This document shows, piece by piece, positions 3,623 to 30,409 of a stretch of 64,000 nucleotides of DNA. The stretch comes from a virus (lineage: Duplodnaviria; Heunggongvirae; Uroviricota; Caudoviricetes), in the IMG/VR virus record IMGVR_UViG_3300042906_000857, positions 67,297-131,296 of that record; one strand, given 5' to 3'. Below the pieces are notes generated by a model that was not told the DNA's origin, did not search any database, and saw nothing but the letters and a program-made list of their open reading frames with translations. Numbering within the stretch: the first letter of the stretch is position 1; each line of letters opens with the position of its first letter. A program made the translations under genes and the position numbers.

Positions 3623-4356
3623 AGTCTGTTAATCTCTTTCATAATGAAATTATAATTTGCATCACCCTTAGTAGTATGTAGATACACTCTTAATAACATT
3701 AATATTAAAAGTGAATCATCAAATGCATTTGGGTATAATTCTTTTAAATTGTCCTGGATGTTTTGTAGTTTGGTGTCTAAGCGAACACCTTCATTGCGTA
3801 AGAACCACTTGCATTCCAAGTCCTGGCGCATCTTGGATATATCAAAAACGTATGAATCATATTCAACAGTCACAGGATCAATCATATTGAATCCGGTATC
3901 GGTATAAAGTATATTCTCCAAAGTCATATCACCATGATACATCGAACATGGTAAAATCTTAGGCAATCTATCAATCAGTTCTTCTTTAGTGAATGGTAAA
4001 CCACTGTCAGGTTCCAGCCAACTCAATTTACGTAAATATATATCCGTGTAATCTTTATCCTTAGAATGTTTATAGAAGGATGTGATTGTCTTGTTTATAA
4101 AATCGACAAGTGAATGTATTCCATTATGAATCAGATAAGTTTTCATATCCAGTCCATGAATATATTCCATGTCTAAACAATTATCTTGCCAATTATATAT
4201 TTTTGGAACAGGATAACCAGCAGCATAAAGTGCAGTTAATCTTTCAACATTTCTTTCAACGTTGTTAACTTTCCTTACAAACAATCCACGTTTATCTTCC
4301 AATAAATGGATTGTGCTGCCGGAATGTCCAGTAAGTTCCTTTACGACTTTGACCAT
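3604..4356 (-). CDS. APH/choline-kinase-like phosphotransferase
   Basis: GHSGS P-loop-like segment, HGDMTLENIL catalytic loop, IDP. Confidence 0.75.
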   Translation of the reverse strand: MVKVVKELTGHSGSTIHLLEDKRGLFVRKVNNVERNVERLTALYAAGYPVPKIYNWQDNCLDMEYIHGLDMKTYLIHNGIHSLVDFINKTITSFYKHSKDKDYTDIYLRKLSWLEPDSGLPFTKEELIDRLPKILPCSMYHGDMTLENILYTDTGFNMIDPVTVEYDSYVFDISKMRQDLECKWFLRNEGVRLDTKLQNIQDNLKELYPNAFDDSLLILMLLRVYLHTTKGDANYNFIMKEINRLWLKCT

Positions 4357-21178: not shown

Positions 21179-21892
21179 ATGCGTAAACTTTTAATTATGG
21201 CCGCTTTCATGGCGGCATCTACATCATGGTCATCACCTATTACTGCACACAGTTGGTTAGTAACTGACGATAAAGGTAAAATAATACAAGGTGAGAACAC
21301 AAAAGAAGTGCGTCCAATTGCATCTATAACAAAATTGATGACTGTTATGGTTGTACTGGATGCCAAACAAAATCTTAGTGAGAGACTAGGTAAATTTACT
21401 AGAAAAGAATTGATCCAGATGGCTCTGGTTCGTTCCAATAACGAAGCTGCAAGTAAGTTGTGTAAACATTATCCAGGTGGAACTTCCTCTTGTGTTCGAG
21501 CAATGAACTCCAGAGTATATTTTATGGGATTGTCTCAAACCAAATATGTGGATCCAACTGGTTTGAATGTTATGAATGTAAGTACTGCTGAAGAATTGGT
21601 GGACATTGTGCAAGAAGCAAGTAAATATCCATTGATTGTACAGTCTAGTAAACTATCAGAAGTTAAAATTAAGAAACGCAAAAAGTGGTTAGTGTTCAGA
21701 AACACGAATCCAATTATTGGTAAAAGGTATGACTTTGTTGTAAGTAAGACTGGTTACATCACCGCTTCAGGTGGATGCATCGTAATGATGTTAGACACCG
21801 ATGTTGGTACGAGAACAGTTGTGGTACTAGGAAGCAAAAACACGCATACAAGAATACCTGAAGCGGAATTTGTTTTCAATACTTATAATTAA
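21179..21892 (+). CDS. D-alanyl-D-alanine peptidase, peptidase S11 (PBP5/PBP7-like)
   Basis: SxxK (ASITKLMT), SxN (RSNN), KTG (SKTGY); signal peptide. Confidence 0.9.
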   Translation: MRKLLIMAAFMAASTSWSSPITAHSWLVTDDKGKIIQGENTKEVRPIASITKLMTVMVVLDAKQNLSERLGKFTRKELIQMALVRSNNEAASKLCKHYPGGTSSCVRAMNSRVYFMGLSQTKYVDPTGLNVMNVSTAEELVDIVQEASKYPLIVQSSKLSEVKIKKRKKWLVFRNTNPIIGKRYDFVVSKTGYITASGGCIVMMLDTDVGTRTVVVLGSKNTHTRIPEAEFVFNTYN

Positions 21893-22310
21893 CTGAATCG
21901 TTATTTTCTCGGTAGACTGAAGCACCATTTTTCAGGTGAAATCTACGAGCTAGTTCCGTCTTTGGACTGTAGGTAACATAATCAACAATATTTGGTTTGT
22001 CGGATTTCATGTACTTAACAGATTCGACAATCAATTCACGTCCAGCACCTGCAGCATAACTCCAAATGGTGTAGAACACCGCAACGGTTGGTGACACTAC
22101 TGCATCCAATAATTCATCTATGGTAGATGGTATTGAATCGTGGTACATCACACAAACTATAGCTGACACCACATCATCGGTTTTTAAAACCAGAACTTCT
22201 GAATTTTTAGATACTCTTACGTTGCGTGGAATATCTGGACGAACTGGATCATCCTTTAAATATTCCAATAATGGATTTTCTAATGAATTTATTTTTATTA
22301 GAGTTTTCAT
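21876..22310 (-). CDS. GNAT-fold protein (malonyl-CoA decarboxylase C-terminal-like)
   Basis: VAVFYTIWS...GAGRELI...YVTYSP resembles the MCD pattern TAIFYSIS...FGNFLI...FVTLSP. Confidence 0.45.
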   Translation of the reverse strand: MKTLIKINSLENPLLEYLKDDPVRPDIPRNVRVSKNSEVLVLKTDDVVSAIVCVMYHDSIPSTIDELLDAVVSPTVAVFYTIWSYAAGAGRELIVESVKYMKSDKPNIVDYVTYSPKTELARRFHLKNGASVYRENNDSVNYKY

Positions 22311-22323
22311 TTTTTATCATTAT

Positions 22324-22396
22324 TGGTTGCGGGCCTCGGAGTCGAACCGGAACTGAGGATTATGAGCCCACTGTGATACCATTTCACCAGCCCGCT
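22324..22396 (-). tRNA. tRNA-Met(CAT), initiator-like
   Basis: CT-CAT-AA loop, 1:72 mismatch, GGG in anticodon stem, encoded CCA. Confidence 0.8.
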
Positions 22397-22399
22397 ATA

Positions 22400-22570
22400 T
22401 TATTCTTTTACAACTTGTCTATTCATTATCTCATTAAAGGCTTCATCTTCAGCCTCGTCATCATCAATTTCTACTGGTGTTTTTCTTCTAAAGATTTCAT
22501 CAAAGTTTTTACCATATGTTTCTTGTGAAACACTATATGGTCTTGCATTTGAACCTTTACCACCATCAGA
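22400..22570 (-). CDS. Small conserved phage protein (MSDGGKGS...)
   Basis: GGAG SD before MSDGG; the ORF track start at 22597 is probably too long. Confidence 0.5.
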   Translation of the reverse strand, partial: SDGGKGSNARPYSVSQETYGKNFDEIFRRKTPVEIDDDEAEDEAFNEIMNRQVVKE

Positions 22571-22574
22571 CATT

Positions 22575-22820
22575 TTATTCTCCGTAGATGTATGCAATAT
22601 CTTCTACTTTTACAATAAAGTAATCCTTTACTGCTGCTGCTTTACCCCAATCAGGTTGTACAACATCACCAACCGATAATTCACTTGCATCAGGACCAAC
22701 AGCAATAACTCTAGCCTTATCAGGTTCTTCGGAATGTTTTAAAATAATTCCTGAAGATGTTTGTTTGATGTTCTCAATGCGCTCAATCAAAACTTTATCG
22801 TGTAACGGCTTAATAATCAT
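22575..22820 (-). CDS. groES: Co-chaperonin GroES
   Basis: IKPLHDKVLI, TSSGIIL, VIAVGP. Confidence 0.9.
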   Translation of the reverse strand: MIIKPLHDKVLIERIENIKQTSSGIILKHSEEPDKARVIAVGPDASELSVGDVVQPDWGKAAAVKDYFIVKVEDIAYIYGE

Positions 22821-22834
22821 AATGTCCTAAAAAA

Positions 22835-22898
22835 TGGAGCGGGTACCTAGATTCCCACTAGGATTATGGATGGACCCACAAATGTTGGAAACACCCGC
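22835..22898 (-). ncRNA. Degenerate tRNA-like RNA
   Basis: GCGGGT/ACCCGC-T-CCA acceptor; no normal D arm; T-loop TGGGAAT. Confidence 0.5.
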
Positions 22899-22904
22899 AT
22901 AAAC

Positions 22905-22978
22905 TGGAGCGGAATATCAGAATCGAACTGATGACTGGAGATTGGAAATCTCTAATTTTGCCATTAAACTAATTCCGC
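22905..22978 (-). tRNA. tRNA-Gly(TCC)
   Basis: TT-TCC-AA loop, GTTCGATTC, CCA. Confidence 0.92.
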
Positions 22979-22986
22979 ATGTATGT

Positions 22987-23015
22987 ATTATATATGAAAA
23001 AACTTGTAGAGTCAA
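22987..23015 (-). promoter_or_regulatory. Internal sigma70-type promoter
   Basis: TTGACT-17-TATAAT. Confidence 0.7.
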
Positions 23016-23039
23016 TACTTTTTTTTAAAGTGTACCATT

Positions 23040-23113
23040 TGGTGCCCCATGACAGAATCGAACTGCCGTAACCTGATTACAAAACAGGTGTAATACCATT
23101 ATACTAATAGGGC
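23040..23113 (-). tRNA. tRNA-Thr(TGT)
   Basis: TT-TGT-AA loop, CCA. Confidence 0.92.
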
Positions 23114-23121
23114 GAAAGAGT

Positions 23122-23196
23122 TGGAGCGGGCAGCGGGAATCGAACCCGCAACTAAACCTTGGCAAGGTCTTGTGTTACCACTAGCACCATGCCCGC
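23122..23196 (-). tRNA. tRNA-Gly(GCC)
   Basis: TT-GCC-AA loop, CCA. Confidence 0.92.
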
Positions 23197-23215
23197 TTAT
23201 GTTATTATTATATAG

Positions 23216-23300
23216 TGGTGCGAGGAGCGGGACTCGAACCCGCACGCCATAAAGACAAGAGATTTTAAGTCTCTCACGGCTACCATTACGTCATCCTCGC
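23216..23300 (-). tRNA. tRNA-Leu(TAA)
   Basis: CT-TAA-AA loop, long variable arm. Confidence 0.92.
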
Positions 23301-23307
23301 ATTGCTC

Positions 23308-23382
23308 TGGTCCGGCGTGAGAGAATCGAACTCCCATCAGAAGGGTAGAAGCCTACTGTACTATCCATTGTACTAACGCCAG
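23308..23382 (-). tRNA. tRNA-Arg(TCT)
   Basis: CT-TCT-AC loop, CCA. Confidence 0.88.
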
Positions 23383-23387
23383 AGATT

Positions 23388-23461
23388 TGGTGCTCTTAAC
23401 AAGAATTGAACTTGTATCTCATCCTTACCAAGGACGTGTACTACCACTGTACTATAAGAGC
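23388..23461 (-). tRNA. tRNA-Thr(GGT)
   Basis: TT-GGT-AA loop, CCA. Confidence 0.9.
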
Positions 23462-23467
23462 TTAATT

Positions 23468-23552
23468 TGGTGCCCCAGGTCGGACTCGAACCGACACGCC
23501 ACAAGGACATGAGTTTCTAAGACTCACACGGCTACCATTACGTCACCGGGGC
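23468..23552 (-). tRNA. tRNA-Leu(TAG)
   Basis: CT-TAG-AA loop, long variable arm. Confidence 0.92.
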
Positions 23553-23558
23553 ATTATT

Positions 23559-23634
23559 TGGTGCAACCTGTAGGAATCGAACCTACTTCAATGCCGCTTC
23601 AAGACACCGCTATGACCACATCAGCTAAAGTTGC
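23559..23634 (-). tRNA. tRNA-Phe(GAA)
   Basis: Stem GTGTC/GGCAT around TT-GAA-GC. Confidence 0.85.
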
Positions 23635-23639
23635 ATATT

Positions 23640-23713
23640 TGGTACCTCGTTGGAGAATCGAACTCCCGTATGCACCGTGTAAGGATGCCGTTCTACCATT
23701 AAACTACCGAGGC
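23640..23713 (-). tRNA. tRNA-Val(TAC)
   Basis: CT-TAC-AC loop, CCA. Confidence 0.9.
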
Positions 23714-23723
23714 AAATTTACTT

Positions 23724-23797
23724 TGGGGTGACCTATGGGAGTTGAACCCATACTAAGAGATTCACAATCTCGGGTGCTGCCGCTACACTAAGGCCAC
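23724..23797 (-). tRNA. tRNA-His(GTG)
   Basis: TT-GTG-AA loop, C73 discriminator. Confidence 0.9.
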
Positions 23798-23840
23798 ACC
23801 AAAGTAAACTTTGGGATAATTTTTGGTTTATCATCACCGT

Positions 23841-24338
23841 TTAAGATTCTAACAATTCCTGTTCTGCCAAGATTCTTTTCAATCTGTCAGCGCAGAAAGA
23901 TGCTGCTGGAGCGTCAGGTTTAACCATTGGAGTCATGTTACATGTACCTTTGATATAACCGATAGCTTGTTGCACAACGCATGAGGATCCGTGCAGGTCT
24001 GATTTGTTCAAGTCCAAGTGAACTTCAACATGATAATCTTCCAACACTTCTGATAGATTTTGAAATAATTCAGAAACTTTGTAAACTTCGGTCATCAGTC
24101 TCATTGCAGGTTTACTTTTCTTGTGGTCGTAATCTAATTCACGATCCACATAACCAAAGATTTTACAACCATGACGGCCATCAATATGAACAACTACAGC
24201 AAGTGCATAATCGGCATACCAAACACCATTGATTCTAATTCTTTCAGAATCAGCACCAAGATAAACTTTAGTGTCTGGTCCTTGTTTTGCTAAATATTCT
24301 TTAACATCTTGTATGTCGAACTTACTCATATCATTCAC
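23841..24338 (-). CDS. RNase H-like protein (YkuK/DUF458-like)
   Basis: VYLGADSE, LMTEV, VEVHLDLN, ASFCAD acidic tetrad pattern. Confidence 0.7.
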   Translation of the reverse strand: MNDMSKFDIQDVKEYLAKQGPDTKVYLGADSERIRINGVWYADYALAVVVHIDGRHGCKIFGYVDRELDYDHKKSKPAMRLMTEVYKVSELFQNLSEVLEDYHVEVHLDLNKSDLHGSSCVVQQAIGYIKGTCNMTPMVKPDAPAASFCADRLKRILAEQELLES

Positions 24339-24351
24339 CTTTCTTTAAATT

Positions 24352-24425
24352 TGGCACCCCGGGAAGGACTCGAACCTTCACAAACAGTTTTGGAGACTGT
24401 CGTGCTGCCATTACACTACCGAGAT
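24352..24425 (-). tRNA. tRNA-Trp(CCA)
   Basis: CT-CCA-AA loop, G73. Confidence 0.92.
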
Positions 24426-24432
24426 ATAATTC

Positions 24433-24506
24433 TGGTACCCTGTAGAGGTAACGATCCTCTGTCTATCGGTTATCAGCCGATTGCTCTACCTTTAAGCTAA
24501 CGGGGT
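24433..24506 (-). tRNA. tRNA-Ile(GAT)
   Basis: CT-GAT-AA loop; atypical T-loop ATCGTTA. Confidence 0.85.
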
Positions 24507-24511
24507 ATATA

Positions 24512-24587
24512 TGGAGGGTCATAGAGGACTCAAACCCCTAACTCAAACTTCGTAGGATTGTGTGATATTCAGTTTCACCAACGACCC
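24512..24587 (-). tRNA. tRNA-Arg(ACG)
   Basis: CT-ACG-AA loop, GGGTCGT/ATGACCC acceptor. Confidence 0.85.
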
Positions 24588-24992
24588 AAATAATTTTCCA
24601 GCGTGATGTTTTCTGTGACAATTTGAACATAAACACGCACACTTATTAACTTCATCAAGAATTTGTTTTTTACTAGCTTCCGATTTATTGGAAATATCAA
24701 ATTCTTTTTCTGCACTGTCTATGTGATGAAAGTCTAAACAAACCGGTTCAGATTCTCCACACACACAACAGCTTAAGGTTTCTTTCAATTTCAAAAACCA
24801 TTCTTTATTTTCTTTTTTATATTTTTTTATTCTATTCAAATTTGTTGAATGGTGTTTATAATAAGACTGTTTACTTTTTATTTTACGACACTCATCACAA
24901 AAAGTGATTCTTGTTCCCTTTGATTTGTTTTTGAAGGCAAATTTCTCAATTGGGAATATTTCGCCGCAACAATTACATTTTTTTGTTTCCAT
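24543..24992 (-). mobile_element. Free-standing HNH (homing-type) endonuclease gene
   Basis: CxxC Zn sites, LDFHH...N..C..LCSNCHRKHH; late promoter upstream. Confidence 0.8.
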
Positions 24993-25003
24993 ATATTTTT
25001 CCT

Positions 25004-25034
25004 AGATACGAACTTATTTATAAAGTTTGTATCT
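25004..25034 (-). promoter_or_regulatory. TATAAATA late promoter in the loop of a 12-bp hairpin next to the HNH SD
   Basis: AGATACAAACTT-TATAAAT-AAGTTCGTATCT, then AGGA. Confidence 0.7.
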
Positions 25035-25040
25035 TTTATA

Positions 25041-25116
25041 TGGTAGTAACGGTGAGACTCGAACTCACGATAAACACCGTATGAAGGTGGTGCATTAGCC
25101 ACTATGCTACGTTACC
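25041..25116 (-). tRNA. tRNA-Met(CAT), elongator Met or Ile2
   Basis: TT-CAT-AC loop, CCA. Confidence 0.8.
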
Positions 25117-25245
25117 ATAGAAAAACACACTCGGCTCTCCTTACAACCTTGTTCCTGTCAATTCAGGATGAAACTGGATGAACCCAGTGGCTCCCCTTGG
25201 TTGTTTTTATCTGTCAATTCAGATTGAAAGTGTGTTTATCTATAG
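25115..25245 (-). ncRNA. Class I closed-stem RNA cassette a
   Basis: CTATAGATAAACACACT...AGTGTGTTTTTCTATGG; two internal CTG-AATTGA-CAG hairpins. Confidence 0.6.
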
Positions 25246-25248
25246 CTA

Positions 25249-25376
25249 CCATATAGAAACACTCTGATAAGTGCTTGAATCTTGTGGTGACCCTACTTCA
25301 CGGTAGATTATTGCAATGGTCGACATATGCAATATGCTGTTTTTCCGCTGTAGTCACACAGAATGTTTTTATATGG
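25249..25376 (-). ncRNA. Class I closed-stem RNA cassette b
   Basis: CCATATAAAAACATTCTG...CAGAGTGTTTCTATATGG. Confidence 0.6.
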
Positions 25377-25448
25377 TGGACCGCCGGGGAGTCGAACCCC
25401 GTACTCCTACGTGCAAGGCAGGTGTGTTCCCAAGTATACCAGCAGCCC
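25374..25448 (-). tRNA. tRNA-Ala(TGC)
   Basis: CT-TGC-AC loop, G3:U70. Confidence 0.92.
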
Positions 25449-25498
25449 ATAATTGACAATTTATCCTATTATACGCCGTCAATAAAGGCGATTATTTT

Positions 25499-25572
25499 TG
25501 GTCTCGGTAGAAGGAATCGAACCTTCGCCACATGGCCCCAAACCACGCATGATACCATTTCACCACACCGAG
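25499..25572 (-). tRNA. tRNA-Pro(TGG)
   Basis: TT-TGG-GG loop. Confidence 0.9.
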
Positions 25573-25578
25573 AAATAT

Positions 25579-25653
25579 TGGCTCCAGAGGCAGGGATCGA
25601 ACCTACGACCAATTGATTAACAGTCAACTGCACTACCGCTGTGCTACTCTGGA
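25579..25653 (-). tRNA. tRNA-Asn(GTT)
   Basis: CT-GTT-AA loop. Confidence 0.93.
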
Positions 25654-25660
25654 ATATTGA

Positions 25661-26100
25661 ATTTGTAAGCCTACGCCGCATTTATCGTAGATTTATTCAG
25701 GACTTACCGGCCGGTATAGCCTGACCTCGTCAAGATTATCTCTCGAACGATGGATATCACTTGGGATTCGTCCAGTACAGTCCCCATTACGGACCTCCGC
25801 AGTTGCCCGAGGGTGGGAGTTGAACCCATTAACCTTTTACTGCTTTGGTCCTTCGAAGAAACCTAGACAGCGTGACTTCACTTGCTGACACTTACAAAAC
25901 TAAAATGTAGTAGGCAGAGACAAAACTCTATTAGTTTGCGCTTCGATATTTAACGCCACCTTCGTGGATCCGCAACGCCATTTACTCTAGTACCAGACTA
26001 GAACTACAAAACTAAATCTGTGGCAGGTGAGGTATCTAGTTAGTCGTTCTAAAAGCAACCAACTTGCCCATTCTCCTTTTACTTTCCTTACCACAAAACT
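25661..26100 (-). ncRNA. Three tandem class II structured RNAs, each starting AGTTTTGT
   Basis: Units ~26100-26019, 26013-25905 and 25901-25661, each with a terminal helix. Confidence 0.55.
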
Positions 26101-26174
26101 GGCGACTCGTGGGAGAATCGAACTCCCATCTACGGATAGACAATCCGCGATAATGACCATTATATGAACGAGCC
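26100..26174 (-). tRNA. tRNA-Asp(GTC)
   Basis: TT-GTC-TA loop, G73. Confidence 0.92.
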
Positions 26175-26258
26175 TAAAAATTTAACGTGGAGCCTTTCAC
26201 TTACCACGATTAGTACACTAAAGTACTTGAAGGTTACACCCAACCTTTAAGAGTGATT

Positions 26259-26351
26259 TGGTGGAGCAACTTGGAGTCGAACCAAGATTGTTTACCCAAA
26301 GGGATCAGATTTACAGTCTGAGGATGCACACGCCATAGCATCAATTGCTCC
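26259..26351 (-). tRNA. tRNA-Tyr(GTA)
   Basis: CT-GTA-AA loop, long variable arm. Confidence 0.9.
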
Positions 26352-26360
26352 AAATTCTAA

Positions 26361-26459
26361 CATATGTAAACACACTAGAGTTTTACGATAAACTACGCTC
26401 TCAAGGTTCTGCTCAAGACCCCATAGGTTTGCCTATGTTTCTAATGTGTTTGCATATGG
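26361..26459 (-). ncRNA. Class I closed-stem RNA cassette c
   Basis: CCATATGCAAACACATTAG...CTAGTGTGTTTACATATG. Confidence 0.6.
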
Positions 26460-26531
26460 TAGGGGCACAGAGAATCGAACTCTGATAGACCGGTTAAAAG
26501 CCGGATATTCTAGCCGTTGAATTATACCCCC
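26457..26531 (-). tRNA. tRNA-Lys(TTT)
   Basis: CT-TTT-AA loop. Confidence 0.92.
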
Positions 26532-26589
26532 ATTATCTTACCACTCTTGTCACTTTCCATGACAGTCTCCTTTTTAAAAAAAAATATTA

Positions 26590-26800
26590 CCATATTAAAA
26601 TACATTAGGGTGTGATTGTCGTTCCAGAACTACATCTGGATTCTCACGGCTTCGTCTGCCGATAAGACAATCTCCACATTACTTGCCAATTTATTCTAGC
26701 GCCATCGGAAGGCTTCATGTAATCTTAGTGAGAATGATGCGGCCATCAAGTGCTCCTAAGTCACCTACTAGAATTGGTAACCTAATATATTTTAATATGG
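26590..26800 (-). ncRNA. Class I closed-stem RNA cassette d
   Basis: CCATATTAAAATATATTAGG...CCTAATGTATTTTAATATGG. Confidence 0.6.
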
Positions 26801-26872
26801 TACTCCGTACGAGAGTCGAACTCGTCTTATTGGGTTGAAAACCCAGTGTCCTAACCGATAGACGAACGGAGT
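26798..26872 (-). tRNA. tRNA-Glu(TTC)
   Basis: TT-TTC-AA loop. Confidence 0.92.
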
Positions 26873-26888
26873 ATATTAACTCTACAAA

Positions 26889-26960
26889 TTTTTAAAGAAC
26901 AGTGTGTATTATATACCAAATACACACTCTTGTCAATACCAGTGTTGCATAATAACAACA
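26889..26960 (-). promoter_or_regulatory. Promoter TTGACA-17-TATAAT with upstream TGTTG-N8-CAACA box and downstream boxA-like motif
   Basis: Box 26943-26960, -35 26936-26931, -10 26913-26908, TGTTCTTTAAAAA 26901-26889. Confidence 0.8.
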
Positions 26961-26995
26961 TCTGTTTTTACATTGATTTCTCAACGCAAGAATGT

Positions 26996-27047
26996 ATTAT
27001 AACAGAACTGGCCACTTTGTCAACCAGTGTGTTGTTTTTTTACAACA
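26996..27047 (-). promoter_or_regulatory. Promoter TTGACA-16-TATAAT with TGTTG-N8-CAACA box
   Basis: Box 27030-27047, -35 27023-27018. Confidence 0.7.
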
Positions 27048-27069
27048 TTTGTTATTCGCAAATAAAGAA

Positions 27070-27145
27070 TGGAGTGGGTGACAGGACTCGAACCTGCATT
27101 ATCCGGACTTGCAAACCGGCACCTAGCCTTTCAGAACACACCCAC
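27070..27145 (-). tRNA. tRNA-Cys(GCA)
   Basis: TT-GCA-AG loop, U73. Confidence 0.88.
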
Positions 27146-27146
27146 A

Positions 27147-27341
27147 TTATTTTTTCTTACGTGATATCCAACCATCATAGTTTGGATCAGTCACTTCATC
27201 AACACCAAACTTACCTACAAATTCCATTTCACCATTGGTGATAGTCACGAATGTACCGTAACCTATTGCAAACTTCATTGCATCAAGCAATGATTCAAAC
27301 TCTTGCAACGGTAATTTGTTTTCACTTATAATTTTCCACAT
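27147..27341 (-). CDS. Small hypothetical protein
   Basis: 64 aa, AAGGA SD, fills the gap between two tRNAs. Confidence 0.55.
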   Translation of the reverse strand: MWKIISENKLPLQEFESLLDAMKFAIGYGTFVTITNGEMEFVGKFGVDEVTDPNYDGWISRKKK

Positions 27342-27359
27342 ATCATATCATCCTTAATT

Positions 27360-27436
27360 TGGTACCTCTACTCTGATTCGAACAGAGAAACTCCTCCTTT
27401 TGAGAGAGGTGACTTTACCAATTTGTCCATAGAGGC
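27360..27436 (-). tRNA. tRNA-Leu(CAA) with short variable loop
   Basis: CT-CAA-AA loop; 5-nt variable region. Confidence 0.8.
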
Positions 27437-27438
27437 AT

Positions 27439-27530
27439 TGGTACCAGCGTAGGGATTCGAACCCTATCAAGAACGCTAATCTGGCGCTAAAAGGCTTATA
27501 AGACCTCTCTGACTACCCAGTCTCGCTGGC
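27439..27530 (-). tRNA. Non-canonical tRNA, anticodon TAT (Ile), long variable arm, minimal D-loop
   Basis: CT-TAT-AA loop, GGTTCGAATCC T-arm, GCCAGCG/CGCTGGT-A-CCA. Confidence 0.7.
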
Positions 27531-27535
27531 ATATT

Positions 27536-27624
27536 TGGCGGAGAGTGTGGGAATCGAACCCACTCACCATATCACTACGGCGACAGATTAGCAATCTGCT
27601 GCATTACCATCCTGCCCACTCTCC
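27536..27624 (-). tRNA. tRNA-Ser(GCT)
   Basis: TT-GCT-AA loop, long arm, G73. Confidence 0.92.
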
Positions 27625-27764
27625 AATTGTTCAATTCTATTTGCTGCTTCTTCTAATAAATCAGCAATTCTATCTGGTGCATTTTCTTGCACCGATTTTC
27701 TTGTAGTAATTTGCCTACGAATTTCAGCACGTTTTCTTAATCGATAAATTAAATCTTCTTTCAT
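27588..27764 (-). CDS. Small conserved phage protein (MKEDLIYRLRKRAEIRRQI...)
   Basis: AAGGA SD; C-terminus runs into tRNA-Ser(GCT). Confidence 0.6.
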   Translation of the reverse strand: MKEDLIYRLRKRAEIRRQITTRKSVQENAPDRIADLLEEAANRIEQLESGQDGNAADC

Positions 27765-27779
27765 AAGAATTCCTTTTAA

Positions 27780-27871
27780 TGGCGGAAGACGGAGGAGTCG
27801 AACCCCATCCAATTTCTCAGAACCTGGTTTTCAAGGCCAGTCGCAGGACCAACCCCGCTGCATCATCTTCC
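27780..27871 (-). tRNA. tRNA-Ser(TGA)
   Basis: CT-TGA-AA loop, long arm, G73. Confidence 0.9.
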
Positions 27872-27940
27872 ATATAGAAACACACTAGCATGAACCTGTT
27901 GTCAATTATCCCTGCGGGGAACTAATATGTTTTTATATGG
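27870..27940 (-). ncRNA. Class I closed-stem RNA cassette e
   Basis: CCATATAAAAACATATTAG...CTAGTGTGTTTCTATATGG. Confidence 0.6.
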
Positions 27941-28011
27941 CACCCGGAGTAAGAATCGAACTTACAATAGCAGAGTCAAAGTCTGTTGTGTTGCCACTAC
28001 ACTATCCGGGA
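27938..28011 (-). tRNA. tRNA-Gln(TTG)
   Basis: CT-TTG-AC loop, G73. Confidence 0.9.
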
Positions 28012-28028
28012 GTATTTTACTCTACAAA

Positions 28029-28100
28029 TTTTTAAAGAACAGTGTGTATTATATACCAAATTCGATGACTTGGCAATACGTGTGTTGTTTTTATGCAACA
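28029..28100 (-). promoter_or_regulatory. Promoter TTGCCA-17-TATAAT with TGTTG-N8-CAACA box and boxA-like motif
   Basis: Box 28083-28100, -35 28076-28071, -10 28053-28048; 28019-28061 is identical to 26879-26921 (43 bp). Confidence 0.8.
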
Positions 28101-28102
28101 CC

Positions 28103-28137
28103 AAACAAAAAACCCTTAGAGGTTGAATTCTAAGGGT
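28103..28137 (-). terminator. Intrinsic terminator of the putative attenuator
   Basis: ACCCTTAGA-loop-TCTAAGGGT followed by TTTTTGTTT. Confidence 0.85.
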
Positions 28138-28173
28138 CTTGTGTTTGGAATCTTTTCTAAGAACTTTTTATCT

Positions 28174-28284
28174 TTAGTCCTCATTCTCTACACAAAACCC
28201 GGTCGGCCATGACGCATCGGCACAATTAATACTTGTGCGATACTCCGATTGGGACGTAAAGGGTTTATGGGATATGAGGGACAC
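28174..28284 (-). CDS. 36-aa leader peptide MSLISHKPFTSQSEYRTSINCADASWPTGFCVENED (contains all 20 amino acids)
   Basis: GTG start 28284-28282, TAA 28176-28174; lies between a promoter and a terminator. Confidence 0.7.
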   Translation of the reverse strand: MSLISHKPFTSQSEYRTSINCADASWPTGFCVENED

Positions 28285-28319
28285 TTTTTTTCTTTCGAGT
28301 TATATTTAACGATGTTTGT

Positions 28320-28348
28320 ATTATATAGTAAACTTTATACCTTGGCAA
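28320..28348 (-). promoter_or_regulatory. sigma70-type promoter for the leader/attenuator
   Basis: TTGCCA (28348-28343)-17-TATAAT (28325-28320). Confidence 0.8.
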
Positions 28349-28368
28349 GCGGTTTCACAAAAAATATT

Positions 28369-28881
28369 TTAATTTATTTTTTTCCACTTGATAGGTTTTG
28401 GTACCAAAGGTGCGGTCGGATTTTGAAATTCACTGAAAACTTCCCATAGATGTTCTGCTGTTACATACTTTGTAAGCAATCCAATCTCACGGCCGTAAGC
28501 ATCTATTTCCCATGGATGTGACCAGTATTCAACCTCATCGGAGTTTATTTTTTTACCACGCCATGTCGATAGTTGTTCATTGGTTTCACCCTCGATATAC
28601 TGTTTGATGTGAACCATCTCATGTGCTAACGTGGCCAAGATACCTCTGGCACCTAGACCTGGATGAACCTCAATTAAGAATTCTCTTGGTTGTTTTCTGG
28701 AGTTGTAATCTTCTATGCTACAAAATCCATATTCGTTTATCTTACTGTCGAAACGTACAGTAGTGAAACAATTGTTACGTATTCTTGTATTGGTAATCAA
28801 TTCTTTGGCGTAGAACTGGATAGACCTCTCAACGAAAGGCTTGAATGATTCCTCGGGACAGTTTAGAATCTTCAAATTCAT
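28369..28881 (-). CDS. Zincin-like metallopeptidase (SprT-like HExxH)
   Basis: TLAHEMVHIKQY...PWEIDAY. Confidence 0.75.
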   Translation of the reverse strand: MNLKILNCPEESFKPFVERSIQFYAKELITNTRIRNNCFTTVRFDSKINEYGFCSIEDYNSRKQPREFLIEVHPGLGARGILATLAHEMVHIKQYIEGETNEQLSTWRGKKINSDEVEYWSHPWEIDAYGREIGLLTKYVTAEHLWEVFSEFQNPTAPLVPKPIKWKKIN

Positions 28882-28937
28882 GCGAACTCCAGTTTATTTT
28901 TTAACCGATAATACTCACTCCTTAGCTATTTATGGAC

Positions 28938-29366
28938 TTACATCTTTTCCACTTTGATACCAGATTTCTCAAGGAAGTTTAATCCTGCCATGTCCCTATA
29001 ACTATTCCGATAGTATACAGAAGATATACCGCTTTGGTATATAAGTTTGGCACAGTCAAGACAAGGAGCGTGAGTAATAAATATATTAGCATCAAGACCG
29101 CTTTCGCTTGATTTGGCCAGCTTCGCAATTGCATTAGTTTCAGCATGAAGAACCTCAGGTTTAGTTTTCAACGTTACGGTATCATCGCTGTGTTGAATAG
29201 TATCTTCACAGTTATTATCCCATCCAGACGGCATTCCGTTATATCCAATTGATATAATTCTGTCATCCTTAACAACAATTGCACCAACGTGTAACCTTTT
29301 GGCAGAGGACAATTCAGCAAAGGTTTCTGCAACCTTCATAAAAGTATCAAGAAATTTCTGTTTCAT
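28938..29366 (-). CDS. cd: dCMP deaminase
   Basis: LHAETNAI, THAPCLDC, IGYNG. Confidence 0.92.
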   Translation of the reverse strand: MKQKFLDTFMKVAETFAELSSAKRLHVGAIVVKDDRIISIGYNGMPSGWDNNCEDTIQHSDDTVTLKTKPEVLHAETNAIAKLAKSSESGLDANIFITHAPCLDCAKLIYQSGISSVYYRNSYRDMAGLNFLEKSGIKVEKM

Positions 29367-29379
29367 TTTGTTTTATAAA

Positions 29380-29454
29380 TGGTGGGCCGACTTGGAATTG
29401 AACCAAGACTCCGCCGATTATGAGTCGGAAGCTTTACCATTAAGCTATCGGCCC
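29380..29454 (-). tRNA. tRNA with CAT anticodon, Ile2 (lysidine)-like
   Basis: CCGA-CTCATAA-TCGG, GGGCCGA acceptor. Confidence 0.8.
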
Positions 29455-29460
29455 CCTTGT

Positions 29461-29670
29461 TTATTTAATGTATTCTAAACCGTCTTTACGCATCCAGTGT
29501 AACTGTTGTGTCAATTCATTGGATGGAAAAAACTTAGACACACCAATGAACTCCACACCTTCAATTTCTTTTGAAGGCCAGTGTTTGAATGTATAGTAAA
29601 CGTCCAGTGTAGATTTTACCCGCACTTTTATTGGACTTGGTGTTTTGATGTTTCGGTTTTCCAATTTCAT
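29461..29670 (-). CDS. Small hypothetical protein
   Basis: 69 aa downstream of a sigma70 promoter. Confidence 0.55.
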   Translation of the reverse strand: MKLENRNIKTPSPIKVRVKSTLDVYYTFKHWPSKEIEGVEFIGVSKFFPSNELTQQLHWMRKDGLEYIK

Positions 29671-29679
29671 AATGATCCT

Positions 29680-29718
29680 ATTATAGTCGAAAAAAAGGGC
29701 TCTGTCAAGAGCCCCTTT
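29680..29718 (-). terminator. Intrinsic terminator overlapping a TTGACA-17-TATAAT promoter
   Basis: GGGGCTC-TTGACA-GAGCCC-T7; -10 at 29685-29680. Confidence 0.7.
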
Positions 29719-29724
29719 AAATTA

Positions 29725-29790
29725 TTACCGAAACTTGTCCGGATAATTTAATCGTTCCCATTCATCATCGGATACTGGCCACCAGTTCAT
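29725..29790 (-). CDS. 21-aa micro-ORF MNWWPVSDDEWERLNYPDKFR
   Basis: ATG overlaps the previous stop (ATGA); ends just before the terminator. Confidence 0.45.
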   Translation of the reverse strand: MNWWPVSDDEWERLNYPDKFR

Positions 29791-29957
29791 GTTGGCCATC
29801 CATGTAAACGTTGTAGGTTTATTTGTTCAAACCTGCGTTGAAGATAGTCAATGTCTTCCACAGTCTTAGGATTGTTAGAAACAATGTATGCTTCTAACGC
29901 TGATCCGTAAGTCTGTGGTTTACCAAAGTTCCGTAAGAACTTGGATAAGAATTTCAT
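29787..29957 (-). CDS. 56-aa small protein (MKFLSKFLRNFGKPQTYGSALEAYIVSNNP...)
   Basis: Not in ORF track; ATGA overlap with the hsp20 stop. Confidence 0.55.
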   Translation of the reverse strand: MKFLSKFLRNFGKPQTYGSALEAYIVSNNPKTVEDIDYLQRRFEQINLQRLHGWPT

Positions 29958-30409
29958 TTCTCATCCTTTTCTTTCACAACGATTTTCTTGATTGCATCTT
30001 GGCCTTTGACCATGTTTGCTAACCAAATCTTTAACATTCCATTGGTCATTTCAGCATTTTCAATTTCAATTTTGTCATTGAGTTTGAATTCACGGCTGAA
30101 ATTACGATTGGCGATACCTTTGAAGATAAAGTTTTTATCGTCTAGTTCTTCATCTTGAGTATTACCTTTCACAACCAATTTGTTACCTTCTAGTGTAACT
30201 TCAATATCAGATTTGCCGAAGCCAGCAACAGCGATTTCGATAACGAACTTGTTATCTTTGATCTGCTTGATATTGTATGGAGGGTAAGAAACGGTCTTGG
30301 CGACTGTCTTTGCCATGTCTTGTAGGTCTTTGAACATATCTTCATAACCTACTGCGAATGGATCAAACTTGTGGAAGTCGAATAAACCAGGTAGTTGTAG
30401 CTTTGTCAT
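29954..30409 (-). CDS. hsp20: Small heat-shock protein Hsp20
   Basis: YPPYNI, IEIAVAGF, KGIANRNFSREF, NGMLKI. Confidence 0.95.
   Translation of the reverse strand: MTKLQLPGLFDFHKFDPFAVGYEDMFKDLQDMAKTVAKTVSYPPYNIKQIKDNKFVIEIAVAGFGKSDIEVTLEGNKLVVKGNTQDEELDDKNFIFKGIANRNFSREFKLNDKIEIENAEMTNGMLKIWLANMVKGQDAIKKIVVKEKDEK

Follow-up and report, generated by a model that had tools for sequence, protein, structure and literature searches.

A putative leader-peptide attenuator, rich in amino-acid kinds, at the head of the tRNA array in uncultured freshwater T4-like phages

Results and discussion

The locus and its source phage

The window, which is the whole stretch of 64,000 nucleotides analysed here, is part of a 172-kb IMG/VR contig from an uncultured T4-like myovirus of lake origin. 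The phage encodes a gp43-type DNA polymerase, a gp23-type capsid protein, a dCMP deaminase and an Hsp20 protein, and the nearest cultured relatives of its capsid protein (about 65% identity) are found in Methylophilales phage Melnitz and Pelagibacter phage Mosig. A search of sequencing runs showed that this stretch of DNA recurs in many lake-water metagenomes. The features considered below all lie on the minus strand and are listed in the direction of transcription.

28320-28348, minus strand: promoter P1, TTGCCA-17-TATAAT, with 11 of 12 consensus matches
28174-28284, minus strand: leader ORF from ORF translation, 36 codons plus stop, with GTG at 28284 and TAA at 28176-28174
28261-28269, minus strand: segment 1, CATAAACCC, codons 6-8, able to pair with segment 2 in the MFE fold
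28207-28253, minus strand: central hairpin H, approximately codons 11-26, from folding and conservation, including the invariant GAGTATCGCACA and TCATGG
28190-28200, minus strand: segment 2, GGGTTTTGTGT, codons 29-32, 5' strand of the putative antiterminator, from complementarity
28134-28144, minus strand: segment 3, ACACAAGACCC, 3' strand of the putative antiterminator and base of the terminator 5' arm, from complementarity
28101-28148, minus strand: intrinsic terminator, with 5' arm 28148-28129, loop 28128-28121, and 3' arm plus U-tract 28120-28101
28083-28100, minus strand: inverted repeat TGTTG-N8-CAACA, seen in the sequence 6 nt upstream of the -35 element of P2
28048-28076, minus strand: promoter P2, TTGCCA-17-TATAAT, between the terminator and tRNA-Gln, with 11 of 12 matches
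27938-28011, minus strand: tRNA-Gln(UUG), the first gene of the array, from ARAGORN and Rfam
27784-27871, minus strand: tRNA-Ser(UGA), with a long variable arm and encoded CCA, missed by ARAGORN and detected with Rfam as tRNA-Sec-like at 34 bits

Transcription from P1 is predicted to start at about 28313. The leader ORF specifies the peptide MSLISHKPFTSQSEYRTSINCADASWPTGFCVENED, in which all 20 kinds of amino acid occur, the initiator included, through 29 distinct codons and without runs of any single regulatory codon. Segments 2 and 3 form a duplex of 11 pairs with an energy of -18 kcal/mol (z = -4.7 against shuffles), and 13 nt separate the end of segment 2 from the leader stop codon. A terminator caller reported 12 pairs at 28140-28109 followed by the U-tract, and the MFE stem extends over 28148-28101 at about -25.7 kcal/mol. 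The whole 221-nt unit folds at -63.5 kcal/mol, compared with -39.8 +/- 3.9 for shuffles (z = -6.05). Downstream, ARAGORN identified 27 tRNAs, which together with tRNA-Ser(UGA) serve all 20 amino acids.

The components of this unit had been proposed in an initial annotation made from the sequence alone, and as a description it has held up well. The TTGCCA-17-TATAAT promoter is present at 28348-28320; the 36-codon ORF does contain every amino acid and 29 distinct codons; the proposed 11-bp complementarity of codons 29-32 with 28144-28134 is real, with one of its pairs being G-U; the overlap of segment 3 with the terminator 5' arm is borne out, segment 3 being the base of that arm; and the 28 downstream tRNAs are accounted for as 27 from ARAGORN plus the one tRNA-Ser(UGA). 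The caveat attached to the ORF also stands for the window's own copy, which begins with GTG behind an A-rich stretch offering only a weak Shine-Dalgarno sequence.

Relatives of the unit

Related loci were gathered in two ways, through the flanking gene for a 170-amino-acid protein and through a DNA pattern for segments 2 and 3 that is independent of that gene. A profile search then found the element in 120 places, representing 82 distinct sequences of which 70 were full-length and unique, and the carriers of these homologues are related uncultured freshwater T4-like phages. Wherever a locus leaves room for it, the array begins 73-246 nt (mostly 75-120 nt) downstream of the element, and its first tRNA is almost always tRNA-Gln(UUG); this position holds also for the loci found by the DNA pattern alone. 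The promoter P1 is kept in the homologues as TTGCCA/TTGACA-17-TATAAT. The short ORFs of high amino-acid diversity, together with a covarying 2:3 helix, that the initial annotation had recommended seeking upstream of the tRNA arrays of related phages are present in these loci.

A loose core pattern applied to metagenome and genome collections gave mostly chance matches. At least 17 metagenome loci, mostly on JGI "Ga" contigs, passed the family HMM, and bacterial genomes carrying the element were absent among the matches listed by this pattern and HMM. Comparison by blastn of the element and two of its homologues with 50,697 phage records returned either nothing or tRNA matches only, giving no cultured carrier, and an exact 21-mer scan of IMG/VR with the element produced zero matches.

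Evidence for a translated leader

One reading frame is open in essentially all of the homologues (about 70), giving ORFs of 30-46 codons; lack of conservation as an ORF, which the initial annotation had named as refuting its proposal, is thus not what the relatives show. The N- and C-terminal parts of the leader peptide are wholly different between clades, and translation appears to be initiated by three different means. Several lineages have GGAG or AGGA 5-7 nt before a GTG or TTG; others, like the window, combine an A-rich leader with GTG or ATG; and in a large group represented in both major clades an ATG lies exactly 6 nt after TATAAT. The start codon of these TATAAT-N6 variants is always ATG, and the arrangement TATAAT-N6-ATG is, judged by its spacing, the geometry of a leaderless mRNA. 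Gap runs in the alignment are multiples of three in 9 of 13 cases inside the ORF compared with 4 of 33 outside it (Fisher P = 0.0003), and in-frame insertions occur even within hairpin H. Substitutions likewise respect the frame, since pN/pS is 0.51 in the leader; the corresponding value for the flanking protein gene is 0.19. A chance ORF was rejected on the basis of frame conservation and start signals, and we infer that the leader ORF is translated.

The conservation of the leader is nevertheless not that of an ordinary protein gene. Its synonymous rate is depressed (pS 0.33, compared with 0.57 in the flanking gene), the entropy at the three codon positions is flat (0.92/0.91/0.97), and the conserved residues EYRT and SW are invariant at all three positions of their codons (GAG TAT CGC ACA and TCA TGG). 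The leader codons are also rare for this phage, with a mean ln w of -0.85 against a null of -0.33 +/- 0.085 and a GC3 of 0.51 against 0.30; for example, GGG makes up 1% of the phage Gly codons and CCC 4% of its Pro codons. Most of the conservation in the leader is, on this evidence, at the RNA level, which is the signature expected of a regulatory leader, and the flat codon-position constraint and the rare codons fit such a leader better than an ordinary protein. Codon 4, ATA (28273-28275, minus strand), is kept in 32 of 54 aligned homologues, and an unusual tRNA-Ile(UAU) at 27439-27530 is found in the array of the same phage as this ATA-bearing leader.

These data bear directly on the possibility that the unit is an early gene in its own right, whose small product of about 36 residues has a separate function and which is carried on a promoter/stem-loop cassette typical of the plastic regions of T4-type phages, with the 2:3 pairing a by-product or a means of tuning mRNA stability. 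Such a gene would account for the conservation of the ORF and for a pN/pS of 0.51, which indicates some constraint at the amino-acid level, as well as for the two Cys residues conserved in many members; and the ORF is bracketed by its own promoter and an efficient-looking terminator, followed by P2, so that tRNA expression does not require it. We nevertheless consider it unlikely. Constraint on third codon positions is as strong as that on the first two, conserved residues fall where the RNA helices have invariant nucleotides, codon choice is strongly non-optimal, the D/E clade has lost the two Cys residues, and neither Pfam nor PHROG returned a single family match for the leader peptide. The invariant position of the element before the first tRNA also counts against an independent peptide gene, as do two further properties, amino-acid coverage and helix covariation, that are described in the following sections.

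Amino-acid coverage of the leader

Given the phage's own amino-acid composition, a 36-residue peptide would contain all 20 kinds with a probability of about 0.0016, and among 15,264 windows of that length from the phage's proteins there was not one with 20 kinds. The property extends to the relatives: of the 61 unique ORFs, 42 are complete with 20 kinds and 55 have 19 or more, counts that are inflated by relatedness, although the property holds in about 8-10 divergent lineages. A shuffle test of coverage, suggested in the initial annotation, gave a mean for the 61 ORFs of 19.5 kinds compared with 16.8 in stop-free dinucleotide shuffles; the other two frames of the same ORFs hold 15.4 and 16.2 kinds. 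Column-shuffled chimeras among representatives reached only 17.7-18.0 kinds, and 0 of 2000 shuffles attained the observed mean. As the chimeras fall short, the clades reach completeness by different arrangements: Cys is within the core in one clade but precedes EYRT in the other, and His, found near the N-terminus in one, follows SW in the other. Why a folded or bioactive peptide should keep all 20 kinds is not obvious.

A match between leader composition and the content of the array was unsupported in L025, a relative with a reduced but complete array of 14 tRNAs. Its leader has 17 kinds of amino acid, and the overlap between the two sets is 12, against 11.9 expected; on this comparison the leader looks generic rather than matched to its array.

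Conservation of the RNA helices

The best partner of the terminator 5' arm is formed by the last codons of the ORF in nearly every homologue, with 2:3 energies of -16 to -24 kcal/mol and z values of -3 to -7. In almost all members the distance from the end of segment 2 to the stop codon is 0-18 nt, with two outliers at 22 and 25 nt. The two deep clades differ in the sequence of this helix, one pairing GGGUUUUGUGU with ACACAAGACCC and the other GAGGGUAGUGGAAC with GUUUCACAACCCUC. In a swap test, pairing of segment 2 with a segment 3 from the same clade gave -16 to -23 kcal/mol, but only -6 to -13 kcal/mol when segment 3 came from the other clade, and anchored pair counts revealed double compensatory changes at six positions of the helix. 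The antiterminator of the initial annotation is accordingly seen to covary across two deep clades. RNAalifold on plain MAFFT alignments, of the stretch from segment 2 to segment 3 and of the leader, returned zero pairs because the two clades are misaligned in them; the 2:3 pair table was fitted with RNAduplex, and duplex energies, the swap test and anchored pair counts were used in place of RNAalifold. In the D/E clade part of the 2:3 helix, GTTTCAC (GUUUCAC), lies outside the terminator stem, and for this reason the terminator alone cannot explain conservation of the helix. The covariation of 2:3, nucleotides outside the terminator stem included, likewise counts against an independent peptide gene.

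The terminator itself is conserved, and its apical stem covaries among homologues. The stem of hairpin H shows compensatory changes, from CACAA/TTGTG to ACCA/TGGT and from TATCAC/GTGATA to CACCAC/GTGGTG, and the hairpin has been lengthened in homologues by in-frame insertions. The remaining helix, 1:2, is less convincing. The pairing of segment 1 with segment 2 that the initial annotation described does appear in the MFE fold, and the AACCC motif of segment 1 is kept in homologues, the leaderless D clade having it in another codon register; but the helix is statistically weak, being no better than in shuffles (z about 0 to -2.8).

A scan with cmscan of positions 21500-30000 against Rfam (E <= 1) gave no match in 28100-28350, the matches in the region being tRNAs only, and the models for the trp leader (RF00513), the his leader (RF00514) and the T-box (RF00230) were all unmatched at this threshold. 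A degenerate tRNA or T-box was rejected, in that no model matched.

It might be argued from the conserved structure that the switch is ribosome-free: a ligand, protein or tRNA bound by hairpin H and the invariant nucleotides that flank it (GAGUAUCGCACA ... UCAUGG) would stabilise the closed domain, so deciding between 2:3 and the terminator, and the ORF would be secondary. The layout does resemble that of an OFF-riboswitch, in that helix 1:2 would close a domain whose inner, conserved hairpin carries invariant nucleotides, next to an expression platform, and both the constraint on synonymous sites and the fold z of -6 would be expected of one. Set against this, the helix that would close the domain is the weak one, Rfam offers no match at E <= 1 with the T-box and known leaders included, and a purely RNA-level element leaves unexplained why all 20 amino acids are kept and why pN/pS is below 1. 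Moreover, frame, start and stop position are maintained by different means in different clades, the leaderless forms always having ATG, and indels in the ORF are mostly multiples of three even in hairpin H. We regard a ribosome-free switch as quite unlikely.

The tRNA array and the second promoter

The initial annotation had cautioned that a boxed promoter downstream of the terminator might bypass it, and P2 is such a promoter, conserved in most lineages. Further promoters lie inside the tRNA array, and similar boxed promoters are found in the window at 27023 and 26936. Because of P2 and these internal promoters, transcription of the tRNAs is independent of read-through from P1. The proposal that the leader controls the whole array therefore finds no support in that form; read-through could at most be an added, regulated contribution, and a switch at this position can, to judge from the arrangement of promoters, only add regulated transcription to a tRNA supply that is constitutive or separately regulated.

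The exceptions to this limit are L025, L034 and L035, which lack P2 and in which a tRNA starts within about 10 nt of the attenuator U-tract (L025:3000-3110; L034/L035 approximately 3745-3830). In the D/E clade the sequence GGAAGTG after the U-tract is the same as the 5' end of the L025 tRNA-Ser, as if P2 had been inserted there. The inverted repeat TGTTG-N8-CAACA is kept in most relatives, and might serve P2-type promoters as an operator or form a hairpin in the read-through RNA from P1. Nearly all relatives have the motif GTTCTTTAAAAA(T/G)TT between P2 and the first tRNA (28012-28047, minus strand), perhaps as a leader or processing signal. Relatives carry tRNA-Ser(tga) in the same slot after tRNA-Gln. 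Two protein genes have been inserted between sub-blocks of the array, an HNH endonuclease gene at 24543-24992 and a PHROG 11311 gene at 23841-24338, both on the minus strand.

Four freshwater metatranscriptome runs contain contigs that lie, at 88-99% likeness, on tRNA genes and the spacers between them (27354-28055); these contigs cannot prove transcription of this very phage's array and, as they stop short of the leader, are silent on its expression.

The terminated leader transcript, of about 210 nt, might have a role of its own as a small stable or trans-acting RNA, to which the peptide need not contribute. For such a role it counts that the unit joins a strong promoter and a strong terminator to an RNA with much structure, and that conservation at the nucleotide level is high. 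There are precedents in trans-acting attenuator RNAs, of which rnTrpL is an attenuator-derived example, and in the stable RNAs C and D found at the T4 tRNA cluster. Trans-acting attenuator RNAs are documented in Sinorhizobium in the account given in PMC6614838. A role of this kind leaves unexplained the maintenance of the ORF, the presence in it of all 20 amino acids and the covariation of 2:3, and we consider it very unlikely as the explanation of the unit; it is in any case compatible with an attenuator rather than exclusive of it.

A proposed mechanism and its limits

The reading that we prefer, at a probability of roughly 0.6, is that the unit would be a ribosome-mediated (leader-peptide) transcription attenuator, reporting general decoding speed at the head of the phage tRNA array. 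P1 would start a transcript of about 210 nt whose ORF runs through segment 1, hairpin H and segment 2. A fast ribosome, with its A site at approximately codons 26-36, would cover segment 2 while the polymerase makes segments 3 and 4; with segment 2 covered the terminator would form, and the transcript would end at about 28103. If the ribosome were instead slowed within approximately codons 1-25, or were absent, segment 2 would be free, the 2:3 antiterminator would form first, and the polymerase would read on through P2 into tRNA-Gln and the array. That stalling would lead to read-through, and read-through to changed tRNA output, we infer from these sequence features. With nearly every amino acid present once or twice and encoded by rare codons, read-through would report a shortage of any charged tRNA; and because the ORF holds nearly every amino acid in rare codons, the report would be a general one rather than that of a single amino acid.

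The geometry of this proposal was examined in a masking simulation, in which a 28-nt ribosome footprint was placed at each codon and the transcript was folded as it would be before segment 4 is synthesised. With the A site anywhere from codon 1 to about codon 25 the 2:3 helix formed; at about codons 26-36 it was lost. In window-type sequences a ribosome exactly on the stop codon masks, with the assumed footprint, only 2-3 nt of segment 2. Equilibrium folds gave the 2:3 helix without a ribosome in five of six representatives, and for this reason the classical three-state logic is not established. Of the 1:2/2:3/3:4 scheme in the initial annotation, 2:3 and the terminator stand, but 1:2 is weak and in most representatives 2:3 folds at equilibrium with no ribosome present. 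The logic may be a simpler, two-state one, with a ribosome on segment 2 leading to termination and slow or absent translation leading to read-through.

The sensing window deduced in this way contains 16.3 kinds of amino acid, against 13.2 expected, and is usually without Trp, Val and one of Ala/Gly, because of which the claim that stalling at almost any codon would induce the array is overstated. Segment 2 has the codons for Trp, Val and Gly/Ala at its edge or within it, and on this model a stall there should favour termination, not read-through. The stronger proposal, that leader ORFs have been selected to contain every amino acid so that slow decoding of any codon switches the terminator off and brings extra transcription of the tRNA array, is one that we advance tentatively, at somewhat less than even odds. 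The causes of slow decoding in such a general sensor would be starvation, cleavage of tRNA by host defence, or tRNA depletion.

If this is true, the unit would be a general and self-correcting sensor of translation capacity, built on attenuator logic. With all 20 amino acids in a leader that precedes tRNA genes, that logic would reach as far as global decoding capacity and would give a virus control of tRNA supply, which bears on why phages carry large tRNA arrays and on how these are deployed to counter anticodon nucleases or the depletion of host tRNAs. At about 250 nt the unit is compact, its family is large and covariation occurs in it naturally, so that clean mutational tests in a coupled transcription-translation system should be simple even though the phages are uncultured.

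Comparison with known systems

Attenuators are textbook sensors of single amino acids for biosynthetic operons. A full-text search of the literature turned up no account of an attenuator that precedes phage tRNA genes, nor of a leader containing all amino acids. T-box riboswitches (RF00230) resemble the phage unit in that a choice between terminator and antiterminator is tied to tRNA charging ahead of translation-related genes; however, they bind uncharged tRNA through a specifier loop and a T-box bulge and do not need an ORF, whereas here an ORF is maintained. The promoter-early stem-loop (PeSL) cassettes of T4-type phages, which Arbiol and colleagues are said to have described in 2010 as recombination and insulation cassettes, are alike in having a stem-loop terminator directly followed by an early sigma70-type promoter (here the terminator and P2), in a plastic region with small ORFs. 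Pairing with an upstream ORF, or a tie to the first tRNA, is unreported for PeSL cassettes, and both are features of the phage unit.

The closest likeness is to the enterobacterial attenuators (trpL, hisL, leuL, thrL, pheL, ilv), which share with it a promoter-proximal short ORF, an intrinsic terminator that precedes the genes under control, an antiterminator that competes for the terminator 5' arm so that only one of the two can form, a segment 2 placed where a ribosome near the end of the ORF would mask it, and a peptide whose sequence is itself poorly constrained. The differences are that the enterobacterial leaders have runs of one regulatory codon, where here nearly every amino acid occurs once or twice; that biosynthetic enzymes rather than phage tRNA genes lie downstream of them; that the phage ORF is longer and runs through segment 2; that the phage unit has a second promoter after its terminator; and that it has no similarity to them in sequence or in Rfam. 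The likeness to trp and his attenuators drawn in the initial annotation therefore holds for the ORF, the terminator, the 2:3 helix and the placement of the stop codon, but not for runs of cognate codons, which are absent, or for 1:2, which is weak. Although it fails on two of the defining features of such systems, cognate-codon runs and control of biosynthetic genes, the phage unit would, as far as its sequence and predicted folds indicate, work like an attenuator of the trp/his type.
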